A model generated the notes under the pieces. The model had not been told where the DNA came from and searched no databases. It worked only from the letters and a program-made list of their open reading frames with translations. Below, one piece after another: positions 5,629 through 32,549 of a stretch of DNA of 41,585 bases. This DNA comes from Candidatus Nomurabacteria bacterium (lineage in GTDB: Bacteria; Patescibacteriota; Minisyncoccia; Phycocordibacterales; UBA9973). The translations under genes and the position numbers were made by a program. Where the stretch lies: positions 132,251 through 173,835 of the forward strand of contig JANPIZ010000004.1 in the NCBI GenBank assembly GCA_031425235.1. Direction: 5' to 3'. Each line of letters starts with the position of its first letter. Position 1 is the first letter of the stretch.

Positions 5629-5650
5629 AAAACACCCTTTCGGGTGTTTT
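5629..5650. terminator. Bidirectional intrinsic terminator
   Basis: aaaacaccc-tttc-gggtgtttt between convergent genes. Confidence 0.8.
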
Positions 5651-5655
5651 CAAAA

Positions 5656-6477: not shown

Positions 6478-6508
6478 CGCTGGTGTGCAAAAAATACAGC
6501 GTGAGATA

Positions 6509-6535
6509 GCTGGGTGTCTGGTACGATGTTGTAAC
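6509..6535. repeat. 27-bp direct repeat, copy 2
   Basis: gctgggtgtctggtacgatgttgtaac. Confidence 0.85.
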
Positions 6536-6553
6536 TATTTTAGCGGAGCAAGG

Positions 6554-7087: not shown

Positions 7088-7185
7088 TACAAAATCATAC
7101 CTTAAAAAAAATTAATTTACTATTACTGAGATTAAGGAAATGTATAACTAGTGCTATACTTACGACTTCTCGTAGTTAAGATACT

Positions 7186-7566
7186 TTACTTAAGTAAAGT
7201 AGAATGTTTTTTATTTTTAAAAAATTGGATAATAAAATAAATAATAGAGATAAAAGAATATAAACTAATTAACCATAAAATAATATACTGCCCACTAAAA
7301 AGTATATCTCCATGGTCAGTATCATTTGCAGCTATAATAGAAAAAATAATAAATGGAACCGTAATTAATAACCATACTTTATACTTTACGCTACTAAGCC
7401 CAGAAGCAAATAAACTCAGAATAAAAATTACAATACTCCAGTAAAAAATATATTCAACAATATAAGCTACCTGATAGTTGTACGACGGTAATTCACCATA
7501 ATATTTTAACCAGATGAACAAAAAAATAGAAATAATTAAAAGAAACAAATTTATTATTTTTCTCAT
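7186..7566 (-). CDS. Small 4-TM membrane protein
   Basis: Four hydrophobic segments, very AT-rich, directly downstream of the lipase-domain gene. Confidence 0.7.
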   Translation of the reverse strand: MRKIINLFLLIISIFLFIWLKYYGELPSYNYQVAYIVEYIFYWSIVIFILSLFASGLSSVKYKVWLLITVPFIIFSIIAANDTDHGDILFSGQYIILWLISLYSFISIIYFIIQFFKNKKHSTLLK

Positions 7567-7605
7567 ATTAACTTAAATTATCTAATAATCAACAAAAAAT
7601 AACAA

Positions 7606-10600: not shown

Positions 10601-10827
10601 CCATAATCAAACTTTACCACTACTCCAGGTTCAATACTGAGAGTCGTATGTGGTGCAACTGATATGCTCCGTTCTAAGACATAAGGACTAGCACTCATGA
10701 CCCAAGCTGTGTTTTCATTAATATTAGAGTCAACGATAGTTTTGGCTTCAATTGTTTGTATACTCCAAAAAACTCCCAAGAAAAGGACGGTCGCCCCTAA
10801 CTGTGCAGCTTTTTTAAGCAAAGCCAT
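7606..10827 (-). CDS. Large secreted protein: beta-helix + LCAT/lipase alpha/beta-hydrolase + PxKF domain
   Basis: Signal peptide, Asn/Ser-rich beta-helix repeats, FLPG..AS, YDWR, AHSNGG nucleophile elbow, GDGTV. C-terminal GFLQP...GSTVPVKF...YIYNW.T. Confidence 0.85.
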   Translation of the reverse strand: MALLKKAAQLGATVLFLGVFWSIQTIEAKTIVDSNINENTAWVMSASPYVLERSISVAPHTTLSIEPGVVVKFDYGASLYINGTLNALGTEVNPIYFTSNYDDEAGGSTDDEEFCYEDIDDQGNIIGEICESYDLGDPFSGDWDGIYFSNSINSNLENVFFYYSQNALTLNSSRVYIKHATINNSTSGITALNSSHVEVLDGVLNNLENEALVLFNGSSFIGDDLKLDLSSTSNDGIVVFNNSEVSIKNSSFKNCPTSACITVFDGNDYVINPSSINIASTVFEGGLGSGLLSFGSSNMSVTIKNSSFSNFYYFAVENYTNFTLHAEDNFWGDASGPFNASLNPTGLGEFVYGNVDFTPWLQAYPPVAACCSNVLFLPGLEASRLYKQKTILGIPVEDQLWESNTLSDVEDLYLNTDGTSKNSNIYTRDIIKETNTPIPAGFLGQNIYKSFADTMDNLVTDEKINGWKEYAYDWRQDINDIVNNGTKYQNGSLSLVDTLQFLVDTSKNDKVTIVAHSNGGLLAKAFLKKLQDDKSAGVNTLIDHVDVLVLVAVPEIGTAKAVPAILHGYDQRILGGLLLNEVHGRELGRNMLGAYGLLPSKEYINRVSASPVTFVDTAIPSNVTTNMVQTFGSAVSSYGEYKDFIFGAESRTNPPINQINLPISLSPSLFAQAETLHNTIDAWLPPANLRVIEIAGWGLETIASFEYYPKCQSSVLPGCNFMLDQRPNFTFDGDGTVIVPSAQYMNFLGAAEKYWVDLNKYNVLQFPRVKHPNILETTSVLEFISDKIKNLNQASYNYLSTTAPIDTSNRLRLSIHSPVTLDAYDAEGNHTGKICPPNSDFCYAEENISNSSYLEFGEGKYINLPEEQFSKIKLQGTSTGTFTYESEKVSPSGASTVTTFKDIPVTPATKAEITKDAISHNLKLTLDQNGDGTTGITLQAPPGSIISLPTYVFSGFLQPINDTARQAGQALSVFKAGSTVPVKFQLKNAYGVVIPANALPLWLTPQKGTKMTAPIDESVYTTTATNGNTFRWDSSSQQYIYNWSTKGLVAGYWYKISVKLDDGNTYSVTIGLR

Positions 10828-10871
10828 AGTTGCTTTTATATTAACAATATTTATAAAAACAGCAACCTATC

Positions 10872-10880
10872 TGTGGATAA
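10872..10880 (-). promoter_or_regulatory. DnaA box (TTATCCACA)
   Basis: Perfect consensus, intergenic. Confidence 0.5.
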
Positions 10881-10889
10881 CTCCAGTGA

Positions 10890-11798
10890 TTATTTTTTGA
10901 TTTCACTCGAAGCGAGGCGGAGGATTATTTCTCGGACGGCGTTGTGGCTGTTGGTGATTACGAGTGAGTTTTCGTCGGCAAATACATACATGATGACTGG
11001 GTTCTTGTTGCTGTCGTATAGGATACGGGCATTTTTATTTTCTATAATACCGTCTTCGAAATTCTTCGTGAGGAGGTATTTTGTTTCGGGTGTAAAATCT
11101 ATTCCAAAAAATCCATGGAGGTCAAAAAAAATTTTATGTTCCCAGGTTCGCAATGGAGTAAATATGTCAGTAATTGATCGCATTTTAATCAAGATAAAAA
11201 AATCTTTACCTGATGAATTAATCTGGTCAGATGTAGCCGGCACATTTGGCTCTTTGAAAAAACCTAAGAGGAAATTGTCGCTCACAATACTTGTGTCAGA
11301 ACCAGGAGCAAAATTGCTATCAATGTTTTTAAGAAACTCGCGCAAGCCTGTAGGGTTTTTGTTGGATGTCAGATATATACCGTCGATGCCTTGCGGTTTG
11401 ATTGTTGTTTGATTTATTTCCGCAAGCACCTTTTTGGCTATTTCATCTTTCGTCAGTGCCGCAGTTTCTATGATTGAGCTTTTGTCCGTAAAAATAAGTG
11501 GGGTAAATTGTGGTTCGACAGGCACGGCCGGTGCGTGCCTTTTTATAAAAATAAGACAGATAGCAGCAATAGAGATAAGTATGAGCAGTGCGCTCAAGCC
11601 CATTAAAATTCTATTTTTTTTAGATTCAGGAGATTGCTCCAGTTTCTCACGCTCATGCTCCTCTTCGCCATGAATTATGTTTTTTATCATTCCATTTTTC
11701 CCGTCTTGAAGTGCATCCGCCATGTCTTCGGCGTATGTTTCGACGACTACTTTTGGTACTGGATGTTCGGTAGATAATTTATTTTTATCTTCTTCCAT
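10890..11798 (-). CDS. Hypothetical single-pass membrane protein
   Basis: One TM segment near residues 63-85. Immediately downstream of pnp. Confidence 0.75.
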   Translation of the reverse strand: MEEDKNKLSTEHPVPKVVVETYAEDMADALQDGKNGMIKNIIHGEEEHEREKLEQSPESKKNRILMGLSALLILISIAAICLIFIKRHAPAVPVEPQFTPLIFTDKSSIIETAALTKDEIAKKVLAEINQTTIKPQGIDGIYLTSNKNPTGLREFLKNIDSNFAPGSDTSIVSDNFLLGFFKEPNVPATSDQINSSGKDFFILIKMRSITDIFTPLRTWEHKIFFDLHGFFGIDFTPETKYLLTKNFEDGIIENKNARILYDSNKNPVIMYVFADENSLVITNSHNAVREIILRLASSEIKK

Positions 11799-11809
11799 TT
11801 TTTTAATTT

Positions 11810-13963
11810 TTACCCCTGCTTTTTGAAAAAATCTTTATCGGCTTCTTTTATAGACAGACTTATTTTCCCTGCAGCCTGGTCCACCTTGATTATTTTTACG
11901 GGCACGATCATGCCTTCCTTTATTATATCTGAAACACGCTCAACACGAAACGGGGCGATCTCAGAAACGTGCACGAGCCCATCAGTAAATGCGTTCAATT
12001 TTACAAAAGCGCCAAAGTCAGCAATGCGTACCACTTCCCCTTTGAGTAATTCACCAGGTTGATATTCGTGAGTCATCATCTCAACGATTTCTTTTGCTTT
12101 TGCTGCTGCGTCCCCTTTACCTGTAAAGTATACAGTACCGTCGTCTTCAATAGTTATTTCTGCTCCACTTTTTTCTTTTATGTCTTTAATTGTTTTTCCG
12201 CCGCCGCCGATGACCATACCTATTTTATCTGGATTGATTTTTATGATCATAATTTTGGGAGCATGCGGTGAAATATCTTTCCGAGGTTCTGGTATTTCTT
12301 TTTCAATTCTGTCGATAATAGCAATACGTGCCATTTTGGATTGATCCATGGCCTCACTTAATATCTTGATAGGTACACCCTCGACTTTCACGTCGAGCTG
12401 TATGGCCGTCACGCCCGCGCGAGTCCCAGCAATTTTGAAATCCATGTCCCCATGGTGATCTTCAGGTCCTTGAATATCGGTGAGCACTTTGTATGCACTG
12501 TCAGATTCATACATGAGACCCATAGCAATACCCGCGACAGGTGCCTTGATCGGTACTCCTCCGTCCATAAGTGCAAGTATTGATGCGCAGATAGATGCTT
12601 GTGAAGTAGAACCGTTTGAAGCCATAGATTCAGAAACAACCCGCATAGTATATGGAAATTCGGTCGCGCTCGGCAACACCATAGCAAGTGCTTTTTCCGC
12701 GAGTGCGCCGTGACCGACTTCGCGACGATTTGTAAATCCTGCTCGTCCGACTTCACCTGCTGAATATGGTGGAAAGTTATAATGGTGCATAAATCTCTTT
12801 TCAACTTTGAGTTGCATTCCGTCAACGAGGTTTCTGTCTTCTGGTCCACCAAGAGTCAGTACTGACAACACATGTGTTCCACCGCGATAAAATATACCTG
12901 AACCGTGTAAAATACTAGAAATTCCTCCCGCTTGCGCATATAGGTCACGAAGTTCATCCATTTTTCTTCCGTCCGCACGTTTGTCTTCCGTGATAGCTTT
13001 TTGATGAAGAATTTTGTTCTCTGTTTCATCAAATAAACTATCTTCGGTAGCAAAATCGTCCCGCGCTGGATATGCATCCTTGACCATCTTATTCCATTCG
13101 GTGTGAAGTGCATCTATTTCTTTCTTTCCCGGGCCACTAAATATTGCATTTTCCATTTTAGGCAAGATATGTTCATTAAAGAGAGTTACGGAGTCAGCAG
13201 AAATTTCTTCTTTTGCGATTACTCTTTTTTCTTTACCTATCTCGGCGACTATTTTCTTTTGGAATTCTTCTAGTTTAGAAATCTCGGCACTTGCCACTTT
13301 GAGCGCTTCAGTGAGCTCACTTTCTACTGTTTGATGTGCTGCAGCCTCGATCATGTTTATGTTTCCGCCCTTGCCGCATACCGTAAGGTCAAACGCATAC
13401 TGAGAATCATCTTCACGAAGCTTTTGCGAAGGATTTATCTTTAATGTTTCATCATCCCCGCCTGCATCAGCTATGCCTGAAGCATTGCGGGCAGGATATT
13501 TACCGATACGTACACACCCGATAGGTCCCGCCCATGGGATGTTCGATACAGCGAGTGCCAGTGACGCTGCGTTGACAGCCACTATTGTTGGGTCATTGTC
13601 GTCCACAGATATTACAGTTACGATCACTTGCACTGCATGACGGATCGAATGATCAAAAAGTGGACGGAGGGTCCTGTCGATCACCCGACTGCCGAGTATG
13701 GCATCCTCCGATGGCTTCCCTTCTCGACGAACAAAACGAGAACCAAGTATTTTTCCTGCGGCATAAAACTTTTCGACATAGTCGACAGTCAAATTGAACC
13801 AGCCAAGACCTTTTTGGCTATCTTTCGACATGCACGCGGTGGCCATAACAACCGTTTCCCCATACCGAAGCATTACCGATCCATGAGCCTGCTCTGCTAA
13901 ATCTGTAAAGATAGCAGTAAGAGTCCTCCCCCCAATTTCCACTGAGTATTCTTTTTTTTGCAT
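11810..13963 (-). CDS. pnp: Polyribonucleotide nucleotidyltransferase
   Basis: Two RNase PH domains (RREVGHG, SNGSTS, GDMDFK), KH (IGMVIGGGGKTI) and S1 (DFGAFV, GLVHVSE). Confidence 0.99.
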   Translation of the reverse strand: MQKKEYSVEIGGRTLTAIFTDLAEQAHGSVMLRYGETVVMATACMSKDSQKGLGWFNLTVDYVEKFYAAGKILGSRFVRREGKPSEDAILGSRVIDRTLRPLFDHSIRHAVQVIVTVISVDDNDPTIVAVNAASLALAVSNIPWAGPIGCVRIGKYPARNASGIADAGGDDETLKINPSQKLREDDSQYAFDLTVCGKGGNINMIEAAAHQTVESELTEALKVASAEISKLEEFQKKIVAEIGKEKRVIAKEEISADSVTLFNEHILPKMENAIFSGPGKKEIDALHTEWNKMVKDAYPARDDFATEDSLFDETENKILHQKAITEDKRADGRKMDELRDLYAQAGGISSILHGSGIFYRGGTHVLSVLTLGGPEDRNLVDGMQLKVEKRFMHHYNFPPYSAGEVGRAGFTNRREVGHGALAEKALAMVLPSATEFPYTMRVVSESMASNGSTSQASICASILALMDGGVPIKAPVAGIAMGLMYESDSAYKVLTDIQGPEDHHGDMDFKIAGTRAGVTAIQLDVKVEGVPIKILSEAMDQSKMARIAIIDRIEKEIPEPRKDISPHAPKIMIIKINPDKIGMVIGGGGKTIKDIKEKSGAEITIEDDGTVYFTGKGDAAAKAKEIVEMMTHEYQPGELLKGEVVRIADFGAFVKLNAFTDGLVHVSEIAPFRVERVSDIIKEGMIVPVKIIKVDQAAGKISLSIKEADKDFFKKQG
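13457..13495. repeat. 39-bp palindromic element inserted in-frame in pnp
   Basis: 35/39 identical to intergenic 29294-29332. Encodes PARNASGIADAGG. Confidence 0.9.
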
Positions 13964-14110
13964 ATGATTTGTACCCTGTAGTAGATTTTAACGATACTCT
14001 TTAGAGCTGTGCTTGCACTTCGGCAAAATTCACTACGAGGCTGAGTTCGTGCCCAGACTGCAGTATTGTTCCTTAACTTAAGAACATTACTATGTGTCTG
14101 AACGCGAACC
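13964..14110 (-). promoter_or_regulatory. Structured pnp 5' leader (two long hairpins)
   Basis: ggttcgcgttcagac...gtctgggcacgaact stem, plus a ccctgtagtaga...ttcactacgagg element. Confidence 0.55.
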
Positions 14111-14457
14111 AATTAATTTATAAATTACTAAAATATCGTATCATTTTTATACAAAAAATACTAGTTTATCCCCCAATTCGGCGTGATTTTTGTACATTTT
14201 AGACATTAATTTTACATTAAAACGTAATCCACAGATTGATTGACTTGAATCTCCAATTGGGCTACCCTTAATAGTATCGGATAAGGAGTATGACTTGAAC
14301 TGACCGAATACTAGAGATGACAGTAACATTCGTGAGAACCTTTTCCGCCCTAAGGCGGACAATACACAACAGCATAGTTTTGTTGGTCGTCCTGTAATTC
14401 TGCCCTTGTAAGCTATAGTTTACTTGGGCTAGAAAGGCAATCTCATGATATTTTAGT

Positions 14458-15558
14458 TTGTTTATAAAACATTTATCTAACATAGAGAAGTATATTATAG
14501 CTTCTTCGCTCATATCTGGGGTATTTTTCACCCTTCTGTCGGTACCAAATGAGGTACGGGCAAATTTTTTGACTGCACTATTAAATACCCAAGTATCTGC
14601 TGAAACTCAAAATAATAACAACTCCCAAACTATGGCTTTGTTAACTCCAAAAGTGTCCCCTGCTATAATTTTTCAAAATAAAGACAAGAAAAGTGATCCG
14701 AAAGATGCCCCGATTGACCTCAATATAAGTGTAAATGTAGTTTCTGATAATTCCCTACTTCCTACAGCAACACCTATAAGCGCTATTGGAGGAAGCGACA
14801 CCGAAGACTTTTCATTTAATCAAACCAGCTTTTACGTAGTACGTGCGGGAGACACGGTCGGCAAGGTTGCTGATATGTACGGTGTGTCGGTGGATACAAT
14901 ACTAAAAGCCAATGAATTACAAAAAGGTGCAAGTTTAAAAGAGGGCGATATTTTACTTATATTGCCATTTTCTGGTGTAGAGCACACAGTAGCCAAGGGG
15001 CAAACTCTTAAAAGCATCGCGCTTTTCTACAAAGTAGATTTGTATGACATACTTCTCGCAAATGAAAGCATTGATATAGATACTGTCTTAGCTATTGGTG
15101 ACACATTGATCATTCCAGGTGCAGAAATAGCAAATGAGCCAGTTGTGACAAAACCAAAACCCAAAACACCGACAGTGAAAGGTAAAGACTTGCAAGCTGC
15201 AGGTCCAAGTACAGGTTCATATTTTACAAACCCAGTTCCTGGGGCACGCCGAAGTCGAGGTATAAAACCTGGACACATGGGTGTTGATCTTGCTGCCCCA
15301 ACAGGTACACCTATTCACGCCGGCGCGAGTGGCACAGTAATAATAGCGAGAAAAGGCTACAACGGTGGCTTTGGAAATTATGTTGTTATCCAACACTCAA
15401 ATGGCACAAAAACGTTATACGCTCATATGTCTGAGCTAGGCACAAGTCCAGGTGCTAAGGTTTCAAAAGGTGAAACAATAGGCCGGGTAGGTTCTACGGG
15501 AAAATCAACAGGGCCACACGTACATCTCGAAGTAATCGGTGGAAAAAACCCTTGGTAG
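14458..15558 (+). CDS. LysM x2 + M23 peptidoglycan endopeptidase
   Basis: N-terminal TM, two LysM repeats (YVVRAGDT, HTVAKGQT). HMGVD, YAHM and STGPHVHLE M23 motifs. Confidence 0.95.
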   Translation: MFIKHLSNIEKYIIASSLISGVFFTLLSVPNEVRANFLTALLNTQVSAETQNNNNSQTMALLTPKVSPAIIFQNKDKKSDPKDAPIDLNISVNVVSDNSLLPTATPISAIGGSDTEDFSFNQTSFYVVRAGDTVGKVADMYGVSVDTILKANELQKGASLKEGDILLILPFSGVEHTVAKGQTLKSIALFYKVDLYDILLANESIDIDTVLAIGDTLIIPGAEIANEPVVTKPKPKTPTVKGKDLQAAGPSTGSYFTNPVPGARRSRGIKPGHMGVDLAAPTGTPIHAGASGTVIIARKGYNGGFGNYVVIQHSNGTKTLYAHMSELGTSPGAKVSKGETIGRVGSTGKSTGPHVHLEVIGGKNPW

Positions 15559-15611
15559 ATAAATGTATCTATAATATTGGATTCTGGCACTAAATATGAT
15601 ATAATATAGAT

Positions 15612-15860
15612 ATGTCAAGTCAATTAGAATATAAAATCGAATACGAATCAGATAAAGAAACTGGTCAAGTAACTGCCATCATTCCGGAATTAAACCATGT
15701 TTCTTCTTTTGGAGATACTTTTGCTGAAGCTGAAGCTAATGTCCGAGAAGCAGCTCTCGGCTATTTGGAGGTACTTAGAAAAGAAAACAAAGAAATTCCT
15801 CAAGCTGCGTTTCGTACGGACGGAACATACCTGAAACTCTTTATACCCGAACGTATCTAA
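15612..15860 (+). CDS. hicB: HicB-family antitoxin
   Basis: IPEL...SFGDT.EA..N.REA...YLE motif. Confidence 0.88.
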   Translation: MSSQLEYKIEYESDKETGQVTAIIPELNHVSSFGDTFAEAEANVREAALGYLEVLRKENKEIPQAAFRTDGTYLKLFIPERI

Positions 15861-15866
15861 ACTTTT

Positions 15867-16094
15867 ATGCCAAAGCTTCGTCGCGTGTCTGCGAAAAAAG
15901 TTATTCAGAAGTTAAAGAAAATTGGTTTTACAGAAACTCATCAGCGGGGAAGCCATCTATATTTAAAAAGTAACGATGGAATAAAAATAGTAACCATCCC
16001 TGTTCACGGCGCAAAAGATATCCCGATTGGAACTTTATATAATATCGTCGTCAGACAAGCTGGTTTATCTGTAGATGAATTTAATAACTTATAG
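15867..16094 (+). CDS. hicA: HicA-family mRNA interferase toxin
   Basis: GF...QRGSH...TIPVH..KDIPIGTL..I..QAG. Confidence 0.93.
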   Translation: MPKLRRVSAKKVIQKLKKIGFTETHQRGSHLYLKSNDGIKIVTIPVHGAKDIPIGTLYNIVVRQAGLSVDEFNNL

Positions 16095-16104
16095 AAAATT
16101 CTAA

Positions 16105-16174
16105 CAAACAAAAAACCGCCCTTCGTGTGCCGAAGGGCGGTTTTTTGTTTAAAGCCTCAAAGCTGGCGAAAGAA
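16105..16174. repeat. 70-bp exact direct repeat (contains bidirectional terminator), copy 1
   Basis: Identical to 16801-16870. aaacaaaaaaccgcccttcg-tgtgc-cgaagggcggttttttgttt. Confidence 0.95.
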
Positions 16175-16179
16175 ATTTA

Positions 16180-16443
16180 TTATGAATAAAGTTCACTATG
16201 ACTTCCTATAGCCATAAACTCAACGCAATCTTTTGAAATTTCTTCAAAGACAGCGCGAATATCTCCAGTAATATTTATACTTTTACAACCCTTCCATTCA
16301 CCATAAAGAGGGTGAATGTTTAAAAGTGGATTTGAGTTATCTTTAATAAAAAGCTCGAGTCGTTTTCCAAATTTATCCTGGATATTTTTTGGTTGTTTCT
16401 TGAACATCTTTTTAAATGTTCGCCCATAGCTTATGTATACCAT
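16180..16443 (-). CDS. RelE/YafQ-family toxin
   Basis: F.K..KK, HPLYGEWKG..SINITGDIR, IGSHSELY. Confidence 0.9.
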   Translation of the reverse strand: MVYISYGRTFKKMFKKQPKNIQDKFGKRLELFIKDNSNPLLNIHPLYGEWKGCKSINITGDIRAVFEEISKDCVEFMAIGSHSELYS

Positions 16444-16447
16444 ATTT

Positions 16448-16717
16448 TTATGATTCGAGAGATTTCATCATCTCATGAGCAGAGGAGAAAGGGCCAAAAT
16501 TTTTACCAGCTTTCCGCATAGCCCTCGTGTCTCGAATAGCGTCTTTCAAGAGATCGCTAGGCTCTAAAAGTGAAAAGGAAACAGTCTTAGAGCGAATAAG
16601 CTCTTTCAAAGAAGCACCCACAAGTGTTGAGAGAGAGAACCCTAAATCTTCAGCGACTTTACTAGCTTCCCGTTTTACTTTTGGATCTATTTTAATATTT
16701 AATATTGCTGTCTTCAT
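16448..16717 (-). CDS. RelB/DinJ-family antitoxin
   Basis: RHH-like NIKID..VK..A..VAEDLG.SLS and C-terminal GPFSSA.EM. Directly upstream of the toxin. Confidence 0.88.
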   Translation of the reverse strand: MKTAILNIKIDPKVKREASKVAEDLGFSLSTLVGASLKELIRSKTVSFSLLEPSDLLKDAIRDTRAMRKAGKNFGPFSSAHEMMKSLES

Positions 16718-16772
16718 GGTTCAATAAATTCATCATGACCCTGGGTTATATTAATCGAAGGATCATATACCT

Positions 16773-16803
16773 AAAGTATATACTTTGTATAGATTAATGT
16801 CAA
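16773..16803 (-). promoter_or_regulatory. sigma70 promoter and palindromic operator of the TA operon
   Basis: TTGACA(16803-16798)-17 bp-TATACT(16780-16775). Palindrome aaagtatatacttt at 16773-16786. Confidence 0.75.
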
Positions 16804-16870
16804 ACAAAAAACCGCCCTTCGTGTGCCGAAGGGCGGTTTTTTGTTTAAAGCCTCAAAGCTGGCGAAAGAA
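16801..16870. terminator. 70-bp repeat copy 2; likely terminator of the minus-strand island transcript
   Basis: GC-rich stem followed by a U-tract on both strands. Confidence 0.85.
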
Positions 16871-17070
16871 TGTGAGGAGAGAAATGTTAAACCTCGCATC
16901 ACTTCAAAAAAATGATGCTGGGCCAAAGGAGAGAGATCTTGATCAAAAGTATTGATCGAAAACACTTCCCTCCGAGTTTCTTCCGCCAGCTTTCCTGCCT
17001 TTACTCCCACACCTATTTTTTGATAGTTTTTCAAACGCACTTTCAGTGCAATCAAAAAATAGGTGTGGGG
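16856..17070 (-). ncRNA. Putative structured 3' RNA domain of the island
   Basis: 16856-16870 pairs with 16978-16993 and encloses smaller hairpins. 19-bp perfect stem 17006-17024/17051-17069 with an inner GCAC-UGAAA-GUGC hairpin. Confidence 0.6.
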
Positions 17071-17075
17071 ATATA

Positions 17076-17184
17076 ATCCCAATGAATTTATAACCTAAAT
17101 TACAAACTCAACAAGGATGCCCCGACATAAATCGTCGGGGCAAAATCTCGATTAACCCTTGCGCCCGAGTACCATTCGGGACTT
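17076..17184 (-). ncRNA. Intergenic RNA module A, copy 1
   Basis: AAGU[stem]CGCAAGGGUUAAUCGAG-AUUUUGCC[stem]GGCAUCCUUGUUGA[stem]UCAUUGGGAU. Confidence 0.75.
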
Positions 17185-17228
17185 TTTTTGGTTTTAAGAG
17201 CTTGCACTCAGGATAACCAAAAACCTTT
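17164..17228 (-). ncRNA. Intergenic RNA module B, copy 1
   Basis: UUUUUGGUU-AUCCU-GAGU-GCAA-GCUC-UUAA-AACCAAAAA. Near-identical to 19195-19260. Confidence 0.8.
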
Positions 17229-17242
17229 ACTGTGGAATCTAG

Positions 17243-17983
17243 TCAAAAAGTGACTTCGATTCCATGCGCAGACATTAAGTATGCGAATGAGACTTTTGCC
17301 AGGTCTTCCCTGGCATTTCGTTCGAGCTCGTTCTTCTCGAAATCTTTTTGTTGCGCTGCCTCTTGCGCAGATTTTTCCTCCCTCTCAACTCGAGTTGCCT
17401 CGAGGTAAGTGGGAGTTTGCTCCCACGACTCCTGCAGGTTTGTCTCCACAAAACGCAGTGGGTAGGCAGAAAACGGATCCTGCCATCCGATTACCGGCAA
17501 CGCTTCCCCGTTGCTTTCAAATCTTCTCACCAAGCCCATAATGGACTTGAAGAGAACGGGTGGCAACTCCGAAGGAGTTGCGTTAAGGTTGACTACTAAT
17601 TTCTTAGCAATCTTCTGAATTTTTTCAACTCCTTTGACTTGGACCAAGGTGCCCCAAGCAAAAAGCTTCTCGAACTTGGATTTAATTTCCGGCAACTGGG
17701 CCGGAAACTCTTCATCCCACTTTGGCTCGTCGCCGAGCCAAATCTCGAGGTCCCCACTTGGTTGGAGAACCAAGTGAGTTTTGAACTTTCTCCCCAAATT
17801 CTTGGGGTAAAATTCAAGTGACCCATTATATTTCGAAAATTTAAAGGGGGGTTTTAAGCCCGACCCTTTCAAATTTCCACTCCACTCACTGAGTGGATAA
17901 AGGAATTTGATTCTTTCGCCTTCCGAAGGCGATGAAATTAAATTTTCCGGAACCACAACGAAAGTCTTTATAACTGCTATCAT
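17243..17983 (-). CDS. Hypothetical protein (island ORF5)
   Basis: 246-aa ORF with SD AGGAGAAAAGG-ATG. No recognisable family. Confidence 0.8.
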   Translation of the reverse strand: MIAVIKTFVVVPENLISSPSEGERIKFLYPLSEWSGNLKGSGLKPPFKFSKYNGSLEFYPKNLGRKFKTHLVLQPSGDLEIWLGDEPKWDEEFPAQLPEIKSKFEKLFAWGTLVQVKGVEKIQKIAKKLVVNLNATPSELPPVLFKSIMGLVRRFESNGEALPVIGWQDPFSAYPLRFVETNLQESWEQTPTYLEATRVEREEKSAQEAAQQKDFEKNELERNAREDLAKVSFAYLMSAHGIEVTF

Positions 17984-18158
17984 CCTTTTCTCCTATACTC
18001 TGCCTGCCGTAACGGTTCAGGTCTTACGAATATTTTTCTATTTGCCGGATTGAACATGATCCGTGCTTGCAACATGGCTGGTTTAAAATACAAAGCGGGC
18101 ATTAGCCAGGCTCGGTATTAGGTTCAGCTCAACCTGTATCTTTAATTTTTTTGGGTTT

Positions 18159-18286
18159 TTAACCCTATGAATTTACAAATTCCTAGATAGAGTTTGATAC
18201 TCTATCTAATATAAATTTATAAACTCAATAAGATGTAGAATTTTTGCTTTCACGAAAATTCTACAAAACTTTAGATTAACCCTTGT
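18159..18286 (-). ncRNA. Intergenic RNA module A, copy 2
   Basis: CAAGGGUUAAUC..UUUUG[stem, GAAA loop]CAUCUUAUUGA[extended stem]UCAUAGGGUUAA. Confidence 0.7.
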
Positions 18287-18523
18287 CTTATCTGTACTGT
18301 AACGTCAGCACAAAACGGTAGTCCTAATTTTTATTTGCCGGACTTAACTGAGACAAAGCACATTAATTACATAATTCTGTTATCACAACAGTACTATGCC
18401 CAAGATAATCCTTTTTTACCGTTACATTCCGGTCAACCTCTTTAGTCTTTTATGCAGGTTGCTGATTATTTTGATATCCCCCAGTCTGACTGTGCGCTGG
18501 GGTGAGACAGGAAAACTGTTATT

Positions 18524-18979
18524 TTATTGAACCTTTTCCGATAACTTTCTCGCTTTTCTTTTTAAGCGTGTTTTGAAACGCTTAACTTCTGAACGCGAAA
18601 GTTTTCTGGATAAGTAGTATTCATCTTTATTTTCCCAAATAAGATTTTTAACTACTGCTTCTAAAGGATCAACGAAATGAACATGCTTTGAAATCATTTT
18701 CCCAAAGACGCAAGACCACAGGTAGTGATACTGGTCTTTTTGGACTTCAAAGATTTTTTTTCCATTTAACACAGCGAAGTAAGCTTCCCAATGCCAAGTG
18801 CTAAAAGCTACTTGATTTGGACCTACTTCATGCTGACCTATCACCTCTAACCATTCACTTTCCTCAAAAACTTCTTGAGGAAAAAGTATCATGGTTGAAG
18901 GAGCTCCGACCCATGGTCTGGGTCTGATATAGATCAGCAACGGAGACTGTGTCTCGTTTCGGATTGTCTTTATTTCCAT
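18524..18979 (-). CDS. Hypothetical protein (island ORF4)
   Basis: ORF with GGAGAG SD before the ATG at 18979. Basic C-terminus. Confidence 0.7.
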   Translation of the reverse strand: MEIKTIRNETQSPLLIYIRPRPWVGAPSTMILFPQEVFEESEWLEVIGQHEVGPNQVAFSTWHWEAYFAVLNGKKIFEVQKDQYHYLWSCVFGKMISKHVHFVDPLEAVVKNLIWENKDEYYLSRKLSRSEVKRFKTRLKRKARKLSEKVQ

Positions 18980-19107
18980 AAAGCTCTCCAATCACCTCAG
19001 GCTACTCACAACTAAAATAAAGTTGTGCAAGGATTGTGTGATCTAGTCCACACTTAGCGAAGTTCTTGCATTTCTACAACAACAATCCTTATGTCCGTAA
19101 TGGTGAC

Positions 19108-19218
19108 CAATTTCCAAAATACTAGTCGCGTACTACTATTCTGGAAAAAGGTGCCGTCTTTTAAAATAGACGGCAAAATTTTATATAACCCATTCCCGAG
19201 TAACCAACCTCGGGACTT
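19108..19218 (-). ncRNA. Intergenic RNA module A, copy 3 (divergent)
   Basis: AAGU[CCCGAG..CUCGGG]AAUGGGUUAU..UUUUGCCGUC..GACGGCACCUUU[stem]. Confidence 0.6.
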
Positions 19219-19260
19219 TTTGGTTTTAAGAGTTCGCACTCAGGATAACCAAAAACCTTT
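19195..19260 (-). ncRNA. Intergenic RNA module B, copy 2
   Basis: Same hairpin with GAGU-GCGA-ACUC (GNRA loop kept, U-G to U-A change). Confidence 0.8.
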
Positions 19261-19265
19261 TTAAC

Positions 19266-19751
19266 TTATTCTAAACTTTCGTCTAAGAGTTTTTTAAACT
19301 CTTCGACAAGTTTTTTAGCTTCGGAATCTGTCGCGATATTCGCGTAGATTCCTCCACCATGTGCGCAGTCGCACTGCCCTTCGTGAACCCACGAAGGAAT
19401 TGGCAGTTGGACTAAATTTTCAGTCGTTTCAAAAGTTTCCTTTGGAAACTTTTGAAGAATTTTGTTTTTTGTCTTGTCCTCGAGGTGGATACCTCGAAAG
19501 TAAGATTCGTTTGGGCATTCATCTGCCCAAACACTTTTTATTACCCGCGTGGCTTCCTTCGCCACGCAGTAATATTCAAACCTCACCTCGACTGCAGGTG
19601 AGGTTTTATTTTTTACTTCTTCGGGAATAAACCCGAGAAGTTCTTTAATTTTTTCCAAACCAGTAACTCTGATTTGGAATTTTTTTTCTGCAAACATTTT
19701 TTGAGCTTCGGCGCTCATGGCGCCAAGCCCGCTTATTAATAAATTTTCCAT
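19266..19751 (-). CDS. Hypothetical protein (island ORF3)
   Basis: 161-aa ORF with SD AGGAGGAGAAA-ATG. H..QCDCAH possible metal site. Confidence 0.8.
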   Translation of the reverse strand: MENLLISGLGAMSAEAQKMFAEKKFQIRVTGLEKIKELLGFIPEEVKNKTSPAVEVRFEYYCVAKEATRVIKSVWADECPNESYFRGIHLEDKTKNKILQKFPKETFETTENLVQLPIPSWVHEGQCDCAHGGGIYANIATDSEAKKLVEEFKKLLDESLE

Positions 19752-19828
19752 TTTCTCCTCCTAAACCTCATCTGTTGCTTGCAAATTCGCCAAAAGGCAT
19801 GTGAACCAGTCAAGTGTCCTGAAGTTTT

Positions 19829-19936
19829 TTAACCCTATGAAACCACAAAAATAATTTATGATTTCAACAAGGATGCCGAATCAAAAGACTCGGCAAAAAC
19901 TCGATTAACCCTTGCGCCAGTAAACCACACTGACTT
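19829..19936 (-). ncRNA. Intergenic RNA module A, copy 4
   Basis: AAGU[CAGU..ACUG]GCGCAAGGGUUAAUCGAGUUUUUGCCGA..UCGGCAUCCUUGUUGAAA..UUUCAUAGGGUUAA. Confidence 0.75.
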
Positions 19937-19976
19937 GTTGTTGACCCATCCACAACCAGGTTTTTTGCTCAAACGA

Positions 19977-21164
19977 TTATAAAAATCGTTTGAGCAAATT
20001 TTTCTCGAGAATTTCGAGAATTTTTTCCACGGTGAGTGTGGAATTGGTTCCCTGAGGGGAACCTTTTATGTTGGGTTGCCCACCCCAACCCGGTTCAAGC
20101 TGATTCAACTCAGCTTGAACCTTTTCTAAATCCACGTAGCCAGCTTGATACTGACAAATCGTGAATTTCCGGTGAGGATCACCCTCACCAATCCGGAATT
20201 CCGGATTGAGGCAAATTACTATTGGGGCACATGAGTACCCCAATTGCGTAGCAAAGCGGTGAGTACTTACCACCACCGCTATTTGATACAGAAGCGGTGC
20301 TCCTGATCCTTTTCCTATTTCCTGGCACCAAACCTCGGTGCCAGGAATCCCACAATAGCTGCAAAAATTGTCTCTTCCGATAAGAGTTTCTTTGCAGCTG
20401 TCGCAGTCCACAATAGTGTATATTGTGGACTTAATTTTTTTTTCCTCGATCGCGCGGATCATCTCCGCACGCTCGGCTTCAACCCGAGCGCGATAGCCTT
20501 CCGGCTCGGCTCGGGTAAAAAGCCATTCCTCCATCCACCCAACGCGGGTGGAAAAAGGAACTTCGTGGTCCGAAATCGCGGCTGCAATAGCCGCGGTTTC
20601 CGGAAAATCATTTTTGTCCCACGGTTGTTTCGCCGTGGGAAGCAGTTTCGATTTCCATTCGCCGCACGCGAATTTATCCGCGGTGGCGATCATATCCACG
20701 CCAGTATCAAAAAGATACTGGGTGTCCTGGTCTTCCACACCGTGTTGCACGGTGCCGATGTTTGAACGAATGTTCAACACCGCCATCGCCCCGACGGAGT
20801 CGAGGTCGGGACGAACCGTCACTAAAGTCGCATCTTTCGGCGGAAGTTCCGCCGTCAGTGCGACTTCGATAGCCGCCACACTGGCGTCACCACCAGTGTG
20901 TTGGGGATCAATGTTCCCCAAGTTACAGCGCTCGGCTAGCGCTGCAATAGTTACCTCAATCCCAAGCACGGGATGAGGTGTTATCTCTCCGCTTTCGACG
21001 GAGAGATGTGATCCACACATTTCGCAAATTGCGACATGTGTGGAAATTGTTTCCCAAGCATTACCACATACGCAGCGGTAATCAGCTCGAAAAATTTTAT
21101 TGTTTTGTTCCACTGCTTGCGGAACTTTTTTTGGATCCCTTGGATCCAAAGTTTTGAATTTCAT
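19977..21164 (-). CDS. Putative DHH-like phosphoesterase with two zinc-ribbon inserts (island ORF2)
   Basis: NIDPQH, RPDLDSVGA, C-terminal GWGG...GSP. CxC..CxxC and CxxC..CxxC clusters. SD AGGAGAAAAA-ATG. Confidence 0.6.
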   Translation of the reverse strand: MKFKTLDPRDPKKVPQAVEQNNKIFRADYRCVCGNAWETISTHVAICEMCGSHLSVESGEITPHPVLGIEVTIAALAERCNLGNIDPQHTGGDASVAAIEVALTAELPPKDATLVTVRPDLDSVGAMAVLNIRSNIGTVQHGVEDQDTQYLFDTGVDMIATADKFACGEWKSKLLPTAKQPWDKNDFPETAAIAAAISDHEVPFSTRVGWMEEWLFTRAEPEGYRARVEAERAEMIRAIEEKKIKSTIYTIVDCDSCKETLIGRDNFCSYCGIPGTEVWCQEIGKGSGAPLLYQIAVVVSTHRFATQLGYSCAPIVICLNPEFRIGEGDPHRKFTICQYQAGYVDLEKVQAELNQLEPGWGGQPNIKGSPQGTNSTLTVEKILEILEKNLLKRFL

Positions 21165-21188
21165 TTTTTCTCCTATTCACTTCTGTAT

Positions 21189-21233
21189 CTTGTTTGCTCG
21201 CTTATTCAGCATATGAGCAAATCTTGTGTCCGG
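21189..21233 (-). ncRNA. Pre-SD RNA module D upstream of ORF2
   Basis: CCGGACACAAGA-UUUGCUC-AUAU-GCU..AGC-GAGCAAA-CAAG. 21-nt core identical to 21661-21681. Confidence 0.75.
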
Positions 21234-21312
21234 TGAAATTTTTTGGTTATTGACCTCCAACCCCAGGAATCTTCTTATTTATATGCCGGAAAAGATACAA
21301 ATCCGGAAAAAA

Positions 21313-21612
21313 TTAATACTGTCCGTTTTGGTTGCAAACTTCGCAACCAAAACCTTCGCAGTTTGGACAAAGTAAATCGTCCTCACTGCGCGGCATAAAC
21401 ACTGGGGGTGTTGATTCCACCCCCAATTGCTCGGTGTTTATGACGCAAACCATAAACTCCCCCATTCCGTTTTCTCCGCGATCAATATAATTGATCGCAA
21501 TGATTTTTTCCTTTTGCGGGACTTTTTCAAGTGCAGCAAAAAAACATTCCTTTATGGAGTCACTTTGCGTCTTCGAGACGCCTGTGTATACTCCAAAATT
21601 TTTATTTTTCAT
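21313..21612 (-). CDS. Small protein with C-terminal CxxCxGxGCxxC zinc finger (island ORF1)
   Basis: ATG at 21612 with SD GAGGAGAAAT. CPNCEGFGCEVC. Confidence 0.75.
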   Translation of the reverse strand: MKNKNFGVYTGVSKTQSDSIKECFFAALEKVPQKEKIIAINYIDRGENGMGEFMVCVINTEQLGVESTPPVFMPRSEDDLLCPNCEGFGCEVCNQNGQY

Positions 21613-21637
21613 ATTTCTCCTCACTCTCCTCTGTGTG

Positions 21638-21681
21638 CTTGTCTGCTCGCCGTTAGGCAAATGAGCAAATCTTGTGTCCGG
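21638..21681 (-). ncRNA. Pre-SD RNA module D upstream of ORF1
   Basis: CCGGACACAAGA-UUUGCUC-AUUU-GCC..GGC-GAGCAGA-CAAG. Confidence 0.75.
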
Positions 21682-22267
21682 AAAGTTTTAAAAACTACTC
21701 GCTTGTAGCGATGAGGTAAAATGCAAGATTTTTACATCCTACCTTCTCACTACAAGTGAGAAGATTAGAGAAATCTATTTTGTTGTCAAAGTAATTATCC
21801 TTACCGCAAAACAAGTCTCTCTCCTTTTTGCGCTCCTCGTAAAGCTCCTCACTTCATTCGGCTCCTTCGTAAAGATAAATTGTTGTCTCTCTCCTTCGCC
21901 CCGCCCTGAATTTTTTGAAAAATTCAGGGCGGAGTAAATAAAGACATTTCAGATCACAAATGAGGGTTAAGCATTTCTGATCTGCCTATGTCTCGGCAAT
22001 TCTAAGTTTTCACTTGGATTACCTCGCCACGGTTGTGAATGTTTGTGTGTTTTTTAGCTTCGGTTTGCGGCGTCCACTAAAATTCACTATTCACGGTGCA
22101 AACAGATTTTAAAAGATTGTCTCTCATCCCACTCTCTCCTTTTTCCTAGCTTACCGGCCTAGGTGCCTTCCTTCCCTATGTGTTCTAAGTATTGAACCTT
22201 ATAGAGCGATCAGAGGTGGGAACCAATCTATTGAAATCTCCTTGAATGAACTCTCTCCTTATGTTCT
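21682..22267 (-). ncRNA. Long structured leader / candidate large ncRNA
   Basis: No ORF of 60 aa or more across about 590 nt after a consensus promoter. Multiple hairpins (21743-21763, 21901-21932, 21942-21993). Four exact AAGGAGAGAG repeats. Confidence 0.7.
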
Positions 22268-22273
22268 GGATAT

Positions 22274-22302
22274 AGTATAGCATAATTAAACTGTTTTGTC
22301 AA
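22274..22302 (-). promoter_or_regulatory. sigma70 promoter driving the island
   Basis: TTGACA(22302-22297)-17 bp-TATACT(22279-22274) with extended -10 TG. Confidence 0.85.
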
Positions 22303-22362
22303 GAATACATAATATAAATCTTGTAAATAGCTTAAAGTCCTTATATTTTAAGGATTAAATAG

Positions 22363-22420
22363 TTATCCACATTGTCACATTTGCATGACAAAACAAAACA
22401 TACTATACTTAAGTATAGTA
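22363..22420. promoter_or_regulatory. DnaA box plus palindromes upstream of the TrmB gene
   Basis: TTATCCACA at 22363-22371, ttgtca-N8-tgacaa at 22372-22391, perfect 20-bp palindrome tactatacttaagtatagta at 22401-22420. Confidence 0.6.
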
Positions 22421-23181
22421 TGGAAGAAAATATTTTAATTCAAACCGGTCTTTCCGAGGAGCAAGCTCAAACATACCAAGCTTTACTTGAAAAAGGCCCA
22501 CAAAAAGCGAGTGACCTATCCAAATGGACAGGTATCAAGCGTGGGCTTATATATAAAGTCCTCGAACAGCTCGAATCCATGAGTTTGGTCTCCAAAACTG
22601 GTGGCCCAGGCACTGTGGCCACCTTCTCCCCCGCGCATCCGAGCCTGCTTCTGTCCAATATTGAAAGAAAAGAAAAAGAAATAGCTTTCAATAAAGAAAT
22701 GCTCCAAAGCTCCATAGGGTCACTTGCGTCAAAATACAACCTGATCATAGGCAAACCCAACATTCAATTCTTCGAAGGAGAAGAAGGGATGAAAAAAGTT
22801 CTCGACGACACTCTAAATGTTTCCACTGGTACTGAAATATATACATACGCTGATTTGGAAGCTATTTTAAAATACATTCCCGACATAAATGCATCATATT
22901 CAGATCGTAGAGAAAAATTAGGAATAAAGAAAAAAGGACTGTTGTTAGATAGTCCCCGGGCACGTGAAGTGATAAAAAATTACCACACAGAGACAACTGA
23001 TACAAAATTTATACCATATGGGGCTGCAGAACTTGAAACGGTAATGCAAATATACGAAAATAAAATTTCTTACATAACTCTAAAAGATAATTCAATGATT
23101 GGAATCATCATAGAAGACCCGCTCATTTATAAAATGCATAAGCTATTATTTGAACATGTCTGGAATATTACAAAAAATTAG
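22420..23181 (+). CDS. TrmB-family transcriptional regulator
   Basis: GLS..QA..Y.ALL..G wHTH, P.IQFFEG.EG, IYENKI. ATG at 22420. Confidence 0.9.
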   Translation: MEENILIQTGLSEEQAQTYQALLEKGPQKASDLSKWTGIKRGLIYKVLEQLESMSLVSKTGGPGTVATFSPAHPSLLLSNIERKEKEIAFNKEMLQSSIGSLASKYNLIIGKPNIQFFEGEEGMKKVLDDTLNVSTGTEIYTYADLEAILKYIPDINASYSDRREKLGIKKKGLLLDSPRAREVIKNYHTETTDTKFIPYGAAELETVMQIYENKISYITLKDNSMIGIIIEDPLIYKMHKLLFEHVWNITKN

Positions 23182-31390: not shown

Positions 31391-31597
31391 TTAGTTTATT
31401 CTTTGAGTCGTAAAAATTTTGAAGGACCTAAATCGAGTCTTTTTTGTCAGGACTTCACCAGGTTTTCCTTCATAGTTTTCATAGGACCCAAAATTTTCTT
31501 GAATGGAAAGAATTCCATTGGTATCGTTAACCCAAGAAACTATCCCGAGTTTAAACATTTTGATCTGAACTCTTCCTCGTTTTTTTATGTGTACCAT
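31391..31597 (-). CDS. Small hypothetical protein
   Basis: Perfect SD AAGGAGGTAAGAA-ATG, upstream TTGACA, downstream hairpin at 31349-31380. Confidence 0.55.
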   Translation of the reverse strand: MVHIKKRGRVQIKMFKLGIVSWVNDTNGILSIQENFGSYENYEGKPGEVLTKKTRFRSFKIFTTQRIN

Positions 31598-31760
31598 TTC
31601 TTACCTCCTTTTATGATTAAACATTAAAAATAGTTATTTTGTCAATAAGTGTAGTCATAAAAATAATTTATATTCTCAATATTAACAATATTTATTAGAA
31701 ATAAAGCATATTTTTGTCAAAAATATTTGACACAATTTATTTTATAAGTATAGTTATTAT

Positions 31761-32549
31761 ATGGCTGAGAAAACAAATGAACTAAAAAAGGTTTTACTCG
31801 AAATGGATTTTTCCCAAAAAGAAGCCGATGTGTATATTGCTATTTTAACTCTTGGTAGGGGAACAGCCTCGAAAATTGCGCGCGAAGCACATATTTTACG
31901 TACTACGGTATATGAAGTATTAAGTTCACTATTCAACAAAGGCCTAGTCACACTTTCCGGCAAAGAGCCAAAGCAAGAATACGTAGCCGAGTCACCCGAC
32001 AGATTGCAGGAATATATAAAAAGCCAGCTCGAGCAAAAACAAAAAGATTTACAGCAAGCAGAAAAAATATTGATCCCTCAGCTTAAATCGATCCACAATG
32101 TCGGCAATCGACCAAAAGTTATGTTTTATGAAGGGACAGAAGGAATGGAAAAAGTATATGAGGACACACTAAGTTCACATGAGGAAATACGCGCATTTGC
32201 CACGTATGATGACATGGAGCAAGCACTTCCTGGATATTTCCCAAAATATTTCCATAGAAGAGCTGCTAAAGGTATACCAATCCGGGCAATATTTCCTTTC
32301 ACAAAAGCTGGAGTTGAGCTGGGTAAAAATGACGCCTCGCAGCTCCGGGAAACAGCTATGGTCCCAGCAGACAAGTACTATTTTTCACCCGAGATAAATA
32401 TATATGATGATAAAATCATGATAGCCTCATGGAAAGAAAAACTCGGTATCATTATCGAATCCCATGAAATAGCAGATGCCATGAAAAAAATATTTGAGCT
32501 TGCCTGGGTAGAAGCTAAAAGACTAGATAAAGATTTGCGAAAAAATTAG
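31761..32549 (+). CDS. TrmB-family transcriptional regulator (second paralog)
   Basis: KEA.VY.A.L.LG wHTH, RTTVY..L..L..KGLV, PKVMFYEG.EG, EINIYDDKI. Confidence 0.92.
   Translation: MAEKTNELKKVLLEMDFSQKEADVYIAILTLGRGTASKIAREAHILRTTVYEVLSSLFNKGLVTLSGKEPKQEYVAESPDRLQEYIKSQLEQKQKDLQQAEKILIPQLKSIHNVGNRPKVMFYEGTEGMEKVYEDTLSSHEEIRAFATYDDMEQALPGYFPKYFHRRAAKGIPIRAIFPFTKAGVELGKNDASQLRETAMVPADKYYFSPEINIYDDKIMIASWKEKLGIIIESHEIADAMKKIFELAWVEAKRLDKDLRKN

Follow-up and report, generated by a model that had tools for sequence, protein, structure and literature searches.

A candidate structured RNA family at the head of a hypervariable gene island in part of one Paceibacterota genus

It is rare for a large RNA to combine a complex conserved fold with the lack of a known function, and time and again such RNAs have been a route to new biochemistry. 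OLE, GOLLD, ROOL, raiA and HEARO are several hundred nucleotides long, have multi-domain folds supported by covariation, are patchily spread and occur on mobile or accessory DNA. Here we describe an RNA that resembles them in each of these respects. It lies in a 41,585-nt stretch of DNA from a Candidatus Nomurabacteria bacterium (assembly GCA_031425235.1, contig JANPIZ010000004.1, positions 132,251 to 173,835), which is referred to as the window and from whose first letter positions are counted. The RNA has a predicted length of 493 nt and is encoded on the minus strand. It differs from the RNAs named above in that it matches no Rfam model, is found in only part of one Paceibacterota genus and has a fixed partner, a gene for a TrmBL2-like protein. 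To judge from the sequences compared, this is a previously undescribed RNA family that is confined to part of the genus. The family is new, and its kind, a structured leader or noncoding RNA at an accessory island, is broadly known.

The RNA belongs to ultra-small Paceibacterota of the candidate phyla radiation (CPR), which have lost the anti-Shine-Dalgarno (anti-SD) sequence and whose mRNAs are mostly leaderless. The DNA that it opens onto is a hotspot of defence and counter-defence genes, ring nucleases, MoxR ATPases and toxin-antitoxin pairs among them. A preliminary description of the region, made from the sequence alone, had proposed a large structured noncoding RNA or leader, and this has been borne out by a conserved 493-nt RNA with covariation in its support.

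Fold, conservation and distribution of the RNA

The existence of a structured RNA at this locus is very probable. RNAalifold predicts 51 base pairs for the core in 17 homologues, 21 of them with compensatory change. When the middle 145 columns are read against a hand-drawn structure, 93.5% of the cells are paired, as against 25-39% when the partners are slid. In this middle domain 15 of 19 pairs are altered on both sides (4/5 in hand-drawn helix 1 and 11/14 in helices 2-4, which form domain II), and none of 500 shuffles reaches its covariation score. The 3' extension forms a three-way junction of 28 pairs, 16 of which are compensatory among 11 sequences. The single 497-nt sequence from the window folds better than 100 of 100 shuffles (z = -4.5), and into the same fold as the consensus.

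Three covariation-supported parts emerge from the alignments, namely a junction domain (domain I), a nested-hairpin domain (domain II) together with a 3' hairpin displaying UAACCC, and a three-way junction that displays purines (Table 1). Inside its closing helix, domain I contains an AGAUUG/CAAUC helix, a helix between CCCACCUCU (22220-22212) and the second of four repeated decamers, a variable hairpin and, at 22163-22145, a further hairpin that reads CCUAG-GCCGGUAAG-CUAGG. Compensatory changes here include CG-for-UA and GC-for-CG swaps in pairs 41-47 with 128-135. The 3' hairpin (pairs 303-360) also has several compensatory pairs, and in its loop, CUUAACCCU (C-U-U-A-A-C-C-C-U, 21971-21963), the UAACCC is invariant in 17/17 homologues. 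In the three-way junction the loop of hairpin 2 is GAGGAG (21850-21845), and in hairpin 3 the 5' strand ends in decamer 4 and the loop is AGAGAGA.

Homologues are mostly ~363-430 nt long, compared with 493 nt here. A 62-nt insert in the present RNA is a gap in 15/17 homologues and holds the hairpin 21932-21901, whose 15-nt arms are 100% complementary. On the metagenome contig of another relative, 21939 is joined to 21834 through 32 different letters. From its sequence, the insert seems to have arisen by duplication of part of the junction's start. Conservation runs from the promoter to a terminal element, and beyond 21775 the genomes share nothing.

Of the 211 other genus genomes, 20 carry a homologue by BLAST search with the DNA. 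With a covariance model, R1, built from the middle domain, the homologue search to which the preliminary description had pointed gave matches in 14 of 150 genus genomes, all between 128 and 167 bits and with no weaker matches. In a draw of 150 genomes from the order, the only R1 match was a member of the genus (G107); nothing credible was found in the 149 order genomes outside it, where a lone match of 26 bits (E 0.007) is taken as chance. An exact-pattern scan of species-representative genomes returned 11 loci, all on genus contigs that were already known, and the pattern scan of viral contigs returned none.

Known families do not account for the RNA. At the gathering thresholds of 4227 Rfam models the window yields only four tRNAs, and the RNA region is unmatched; at E values up to 10, the interval 21500-22450 gives 15 matches to miRNA and snoRNA models at chance level, the best of them, to a miRNA model, scoring 25 bits against a threshold of 100. 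RNase P RNA and tmRNA were ruled out as identities, both having been located elsewhere in the genome by Rfam, and no Rfam match to small SRP RNA or 6S RNA was found in the genome. A housekeeping role would be hard to square with the presence of the RNA in only ~10% of the genus. A TIGR-Tas array was also rejected, tandem guide repeats being absent at the RNA. No description of the RNA was found in the literature on Parcubacteria and CPR noncoding RNA, the anti-SD sequence and leaderless genes (supplements not covered).

Some genomes depart from the usual arrangement. In G172 the RNA is present in two copies or more, and it is within the element that the contigs of this genome break off (loci L107, L108 and L109, on contigs C58, C22 and C57 respectively). 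Contig C58 (11 kb) has the RNA at its start and at its end, together with two more TrmBL2-like paralogues. The modules of G172 may stand in tandem, or the pattern may reflect an assembly repeat. G081 (L097) and G158 (L100/L125) are natural deletion variants, which makes them potential natural controls for function; what is left of the fold in G158 is a 'mini' variant, with diverged forms of the 3' hairpin and the junction.

Table 1. Features of the RNA locus and the adjoining island, in window coordinates
Feature	Coordinates	Strand	Description
Structured RNA	21775..22267	-	493 nt; 5' end predicted from the promoter, 3' limit set by the end of conservation
RNA promoter	22274..22302	-	TTGACA, 17 nt, TG-extended TATACT; 11/12 consensus matches
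Decamer 1	22251..22260	-	~8 nt past the predicted start, in the variable 5' region (first 20-80 nt)
Domain I	22100..22244	-	Multi-helix junction, closed by CAAGGAGAU (22244-22236) with AUCUGUUU (22107-22100)
Decamer 2	22132..22141	-	Paired at long range within domain I, as the purine strand
Domain II	22035..22094	-	Nested helices GUGAAU/AUUCAC, GUG/CAC and UUUAG/CUAAA around conserved GCCGCAAACC
Core 3' hairpin	21941..21994	-	Stems GACAU/AUGUC, CAGAUCA/UGAUCUG and AAAUG/CAUUU
62-nt insert	21876..21937	-	Carries decamer 3 and the perfect hairpin 21932-21901; shared with G188 alone
Decamer 3	21887..21896	-	Within the 62-nt insert
3' three-way junction (domain III)	21797..21875	-	Outer helix UCUUUACG/GGUAAGGAU, then single-stranded GAAGGAG
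Decamer 4	21817..21826	-	AAGG in the stem and AGAGAG(A) in the loop of hairpin 3
Terminal element UUUGACAACAAAAUAG	21775..21790	-	Consensus UUUGAMAAnnAAAUAK; similarity between genomes stops past it
TrmBL2-like regulator gene	22420..23181	+	Winged helix, coiled coil and PLD-like C-terminal domain; divergent from the RNA
Palindrome TTGTCA-N8-TGACAA	22372..22391		Between the two promoters; read in the sequence
Hypervariable island	16718..21774	-	Same-strand orphan genes of 99, 395, 161, ~151, 246 and 103 aa
Module B	21613..21689	-	77-nt leader of the 99-aa gene, ending in GAGGAGAAAUAUG; repeat family D2
Module A spacers	17040-17242, 17984-18330, 19752-19976	-	Repeated inter-gene spacers, structured

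Purine-rich repeats in a mostly leaderless genome

The region had drawn attention through four exact copies of the decamer AAGGAGAGAG, and these are present, all on the minus strand, which the preliminary description had not assigned. This assignment decides the rest of the interpretation. The decamer occurs seven times in the window, where 0.04 copies would be expected from dinucleotide-preserving shuffles (0/100 of which reach seven), and ten times on both strands of the whole genome (745,984 bases in 9 contigs, 37.5% G+C, scored 100% complete); four of the ten are in the RNA region. GGAG occurs on the RNA strand eight times, or 16.2 per kb, compared with 2.8 per kb genome-wide. The two hairpins noticed earlier are there as well, that of the insert and one at 21763-21743 formed by CTTCTCAC and GTGAGAAG, as read in the sequence. 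The absence of an attached open reading frame (ORF) of substantial size also holds, with no ORF of at least 60 aa on the minus strand at 21613-22300, where the only frames are a 39-aa TTG ORF (21814-21695), a 32-aa ORF and a 16-aa ORF following decamer 2.

The exact decamer, by contrast, did not hold up as a conserved unit. At the place of decamer 1, GGAGAGAG is seen in only four of 18 aligned loci (L020, L021, L026 and L038), while it is kept in 13/17 homologues at decamer 2 and in 10/17 at decamer 4; decamer 3 is confined to the insert. Decamer 2 pairs with CACCUCU both in the consensus and in the single-sequence fold, and both strands of this helix are swapped in L025 (CAGACCUCU/AGAGGCUG) and L027 (GUCGAC/GUCGGC). 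The stem of decamer 4 corresponds to pairs 55-58 with 66-70 of the 3' junction alignment. Because decamers 1 and 3 are poorly conserved and decamer 2 is buried in a helix, the selected unit is not the exact decamer, and is instead a set of strands and loops rich in GGAG and AGAG. The recurrence of the decamer would then come from this composition, common to several helix strands and loops, plus local duplication, and would not represent a repeated independent site. Purine GGAG/AGAG elements are displayed in the junction, three of them being exposed (GAAGGAG, GAGGAG and AGAGAGA), and the AAGGAGAU motif and decamer 2, two further elements with GGAG, are taken up as strands of helices.

The 16S rRNA of this genome (G000, C3:396-1950) has an intact helix 45 and ends in GGAAUAAUUCAAU rather than CCUCC; the tail, also written GUCGUGGAAUAAUUCAAU or GGAAUAAUUCAAUUUGAAA, has its CCUCC anti-SD replaced. 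The same tail is found in 30/30 relatives, drawn from within the genus and from further families in the order (L046-L075). Loss of the anti-SD motif has been described for a Parcubacteria subgroup (PMC9297842). The sequences that precede 638 long ORFs show no SD peak of note; what they do show is a TGnTAnAAT-like signal at -15 to -7 before the ATG, which is a signature of leaderless mRNAs. In a second gene set, 33/749 ORFs are preceded by an SD-like word and 382/749 directly by a -10-like word, so that the earlier suggestion of a mostly leaderless genome is upheld. A small but real SD-like peak persists before ~2-4% of genes.

The divergent regulator and the hypervariable island

Both hexamers of the RNA promoter are kept in all aligned homologues, and also in G081 and G158. 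A gene of 250-270 aa beginning MQEENILIQAGLSEEQ is divergent from the RNA at every one of the 17 loci for which flanking DNA exists. Orthologues of the regulator (40-82% identity) are found in all 20 RNA genomes and in G081 and G158, and elsewhere only paralogues of ~30% identity are seen. The RNA is always accompanied by the divergent TrmBL2-like gene. The protein matches Pfam TrmB (9e-13); its structural model (pLDDT 78.5) has TrmBL2 (5bpd; E 5e-14, TM-score 0.37) as best hit in the PDB, followed by TrmB (3qph). The palindrome between the two promoters is kept in G016, G008, G081 and G158, and is likely to be an operator, judged from its sequence and position. Next to it, a perfect 10-bp palindrome (CATACTATAC-TTAA-GTATAGTATG, 22399-22422) extends over the start codon of the regulator gene and its -10 region, and may serve as a further operator or fold as a hairpin at the 5' end of the mRNA. 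A divergent small gene also adjoins a paralogous TrmB-like gene (31761-32549; 29% identical), in the 31590-31760 region, and ahead of this small gene is AAAAGGAGGUAAGAAAUG, another SD-like leader in a genome lacking the anti-SD.

On its other side the RNA heads a hypervariable accessory island, on the same strand and with a gene set that differs by genome. The first sizeable downstream ORFs are on the RNA strand in 17/17 loci. G188, the closest relative, is collinear with the window at 1-16717 and 21732-22806, and has 1.85 kb of other DNA where the window has the intervening 5 kb. None of the six island proteins of the window belongs to a family in PHROGs, PADLOC, Pfam or NCBIfam, and the 99-aa protein has no relative in 40 related genomes. 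The ~151-aa gene starts at an ATG (155 aa from an upstream TTG); the 103-aa frame overlaps a module A spacer at its 5' end, and at its 3' end a 91-nt repeat, D1, and a promoter at 16803-16775. In relatives the cargo includes MoxR ATPases (G170, G076), a STIV_B116-like ring-nuclease family (G170, G172), Csx3 (G120), Csx23 (G139), NYN nucleases, and HigBA-like and RelB/YafQ toxin-antitoxin pairs, and in three genomes PNPase forms the far border of the island.

Cargo related to cyclic oligoadenylate is present in four islands (L044, L109, L115 and L113, of G170, G172, G120 and G139), and a CRISPR locus was not seen nearby; this cargo may be counter-defence in an episymbiotic lineage. In the window, direct D1 repeats at 16084-16174 and 16780-16870 (89% identical) flank a RelB/YafQ pair (16180-16717), each with a perfect 20-bp bidirectional terminator hairpin, and the upstream copy overlaps the promoter at 16803-16775 (TTGACA-17-TATACT). 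The pair between its repeats looks like a self-contained cassette.

The island is also marked by repeated leaders and spacers. The next two genes are preceded by further copies of module B, one at 21243-21167 with 80% identity and a looser one at ~19821-19752, so that its end, AGGAG-N5-7-ATG, stands ahead of three genes. Module A consists of a CAAGG/CCUUG stem around GUUAAUCGAG and a hairpin of variable sequence and retained pairing, followed by CAUAGGGUUAAAAA; it is also found in G188 (L043:16800-16990), where the flanking genes are different. A likeness of the spacer word CAAGGGUUAAUCG to a segment of 23S rRNA (C4, ~57.7 kb) was taken as coincidence. Module A carries AGGGUUAA, which is complementary to the invariant loop of the RNA. 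Within 0.5-5.5 kb past 18 RNAs (83 kb), GGGTTAR occurs 41 times on the RNA strand versus six on the opposite strand, and further out (61 kb) twice versus never; 38 of 44 occurrences are intergenic, and the genome average is ~0.07 per kb per strand. Among island ORFs, 21/85 have an SD-like word and 19/85 a -10-like word directly before the ATG, compared with the genome-wide counts given above. By these counts the island ORFs look leadered.

Interpretation and comparison with known systems

We lean, by a slight balance of the evidence, to a composite reading in which the RNA is a cis-acting 5' leader of the island transcript and controls expression of the island. On the minus strand of the window no promoter comparable to that of the RNA is found in the island until 16803. 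As the leader of this transcript, the RNA would be placed under a promoter whose activity is set by the TrmBL2-like protein, acting at the intergenic palindrome. What then becomes of the long transcript would be governed by the folded leader: how stable it is, whether internal terminators are read through and/or whether the leadered cistrons are accessible. Its purine loops could be docking sites for a factor other than CsrA, Hfq or the canonical 16S tail, and the UAACCC loop may contact the GGGUUAR motifs of the island spacers. None of these mechanisms, taken singly, comes near to being probable. Control by a leader would matter in such a cell, which has mostly leaderless genes of its own and no anti-SD in its 16S rRNA.

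Several observations weigh against such a leader. In G081 and G158 the promoter, the regulator, the island and the first ~40 nt are kept and domains I and II are absent; with most or all of the core missing there, the core is dispensable for having an island. A weak terminator-like site lies at 21711-21699, between the RNA and the first gene, and a better intrinsic terminator at 19175-19152, after the third island gene, which makes a stand-alone RNA possible. No helper for read-through came to light either, Rho not being found in the genome and PF02357 having a single match there, with no paralogue, which is taken as the housekeeping NusG. The loop variants CUAACCC and UUAACCC are not mirrored by GGGUUAG and GGGUUAA, so there is no covariation between loop and spacer, and GGGTTAR is missing from 5/18 islands. 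SD-like words are unevenly spread, occurring before 5/5 ORFs in G000 and G170 and before none in some others. The sole match in an RNA library is a 203-nt metatranscriptome contig over 22046-22243 (<90% identity), a weak sign of transcription that comes from a relative and may be DNA carry-over; nothing else was covered in that run, which carries no weight, and the remaining public runs gave short DNA contigs of relatives.

The alternatives make different use of the same features. A stand-alone, abundant RNA acting in trans, which would titrate a non-CsrA RNA-binding protein through its GGAG/AGAG loops, would suit the near-perfect promoter, typical of abundant small RNAs, the three purine elements of the junction, a GGAG density 5.8 times that of the genome, and the end of conservation at 21775, which is followed by weak terminator-like hairpins. 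Such an RNA would resemble CsrB, RsmY and RsmZ in carrying several GGA-containing purine motifs in the hairpin loops and linkers of one RNA with a strong promoter. It is larger, however, its long-range helices bury two of the GGAG elements, and it is fixed in cis ahead of a gene island; it is never seen away from the regulator-island locus, and the TrmBL2-like gene adjoins it wherever flanking DNA exists. The sponge of the CsrB/RsmZ type that had been proposed in the preliminary description fails because neither CsrA nor Hfq was found in this genome, scored as complete, and no Csr/Rsm model is among the Rfam matches at E up to 10. For csrA, the check suggested at the time, a six-frame search of the whole genome with PF02599 gave no match, while its positive control matched in 3/14 named genomes. 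A trans-acting sponge for some other protein is unlikely. The decamers might instead be SD sites, serving as decoys, stand-by or loading sites, STAB-SD elements or ribosome-binding sites of short peptides. They contain the SD consensus core AGGAG, a well-spaced ATG follows decamer 2 and a TTG follows decamer 4, and AGGAG stands 5-8 nt ahead of the ATG in four consecutive island genes. The ATG after decamer 2 is kept in only 4/17 homologues, however, the rest having CTG or other codons; after decamer 4 neither start nor frame is kept (CTG, CGG or CAG, with spacers of 6-8 nt), and no start codon follows decamers 1 and 3 as read in the sequence. Since the 16S tail lacks CCUCC, here and in all of the relatives compared, and the short ORFs are not conserved, the SD reading fails: decoys or loading sites working through the usual pairing have been set aside, as has the idea that each repeat is the ribosome-binding site of a short peptide. 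By the canonical mechanism SD sites are largely refuted, and in any form they are most improbable.

A ligand-sensing leader would use domain I as the aptamer, binding a metabolite or a nucleotide signal that switches the island on, with overlapping pairings of GUCUU acting as the switch. Domain I is a conserved multi-helix junction with invariant unpaired nucleotides, and GUCUU can pair either with AAGAC, closing the core hairpin, or within GUCUUUAC/GUAAAGAU, closing the 3' junction, two pairings that are mutually exclusive in most homologues; the cargo of relatives includes genes related to cyclic oligoadenylate, of the STIV_B116-like and Csx3 ring-nuclease families and Csx23. Against this, there is no Rfam riboswitch match, the AAGAC/GUCUU helix shows no compensatory change, the duplication in this window permits both pairings together, and the data suggest no ligand. 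The cargo varies in every genome, and so offers no common pathway to regulate. We hold a ligand-sensing leader to be decidedly unlikely. It is also very unlikely that the decamers, or TTAACCC/GGGTTAA, are sites in DNA, bound by the TrmBL2-like protein or by a recombinase that shuffles cassettes as in integrons. The regulator does accompany the locus always, TrmBL2 is a DNA-coating protein according to the title of its PDB entry, and the array with its single orientation, repeated spacers and toxin-antitoxin pair between 91-nt repeats recalls chromosomal integrons. However, compensatory changes that preserve pairing indicate selection on a single strand and not on the duplex, GGGTTAR is biased by strand, the decamers are not retained as units between genomes, and no integrase adjoins the locus, the only PF00589 match of the genome lying ~14 kb off (C4:168388-168912, window ~36138-36662).

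The leader reading can be extended to a bolder form, to which we give very little credence, where the RNA organises an RNA-based cassette platform that expresses foreign, leadered genes of defence and counter-defence in a cell specialised for leaderless mRNAs. On such a platform the invariant UAACCC loop would form kissing pairs with the GGGUUAR motifs that the island transcript carries in its structured spacers, and the internal purine/pyrimidine helix GAGAGUGGG/CCCACCUCU, which resembles an SD:anti-SD duplex, would join with the GGAG loops in recruiting ribosomes that lack the anti-SD. If true, this would give horizontally acquired genes a new route into an unusual translation system. More generally, if the RNA controls foreign leadered genes, it makes testable how bacteria without an anti-SD translate acquired operons. 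Even as a mere regulatory leader it provides a defined and alignable RNA family, with three domains and 21 genomes, for structure probing.

As a leader, the RNA can be compared with the processive antitermination leaders, such as put of phage HK022 and EAR of Bacillus and those that depend on the NusG paralogues RfaH (ops), LoaP and UpxY. In these a structured element heads variable operons, which are long, horizontally acquired and provided with internal terminators; the terminators of the present island are computed. The locus differs from them in having no Rfam EAR match, no NusG paralogue and no Rho, and its RNA is 3-6 times larger than put or EAR. Its layout also resembles that of a chromosomal integron, with its intI, Pc, attI and cassettes: a divergent regulator-type gene, one strong outward promoter, and orphan cassettes in the same orientation that are poor in promoters, separated by repeated structured spacers and accompanied by a toxin-antitoxin cassette. 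Unlike in the integron, the locus has no integrase, the adjacent divergent gene is TrmBL2-like and not IntI, and the place of attI is taken by a platform of 400-490 nt of folded RNA.

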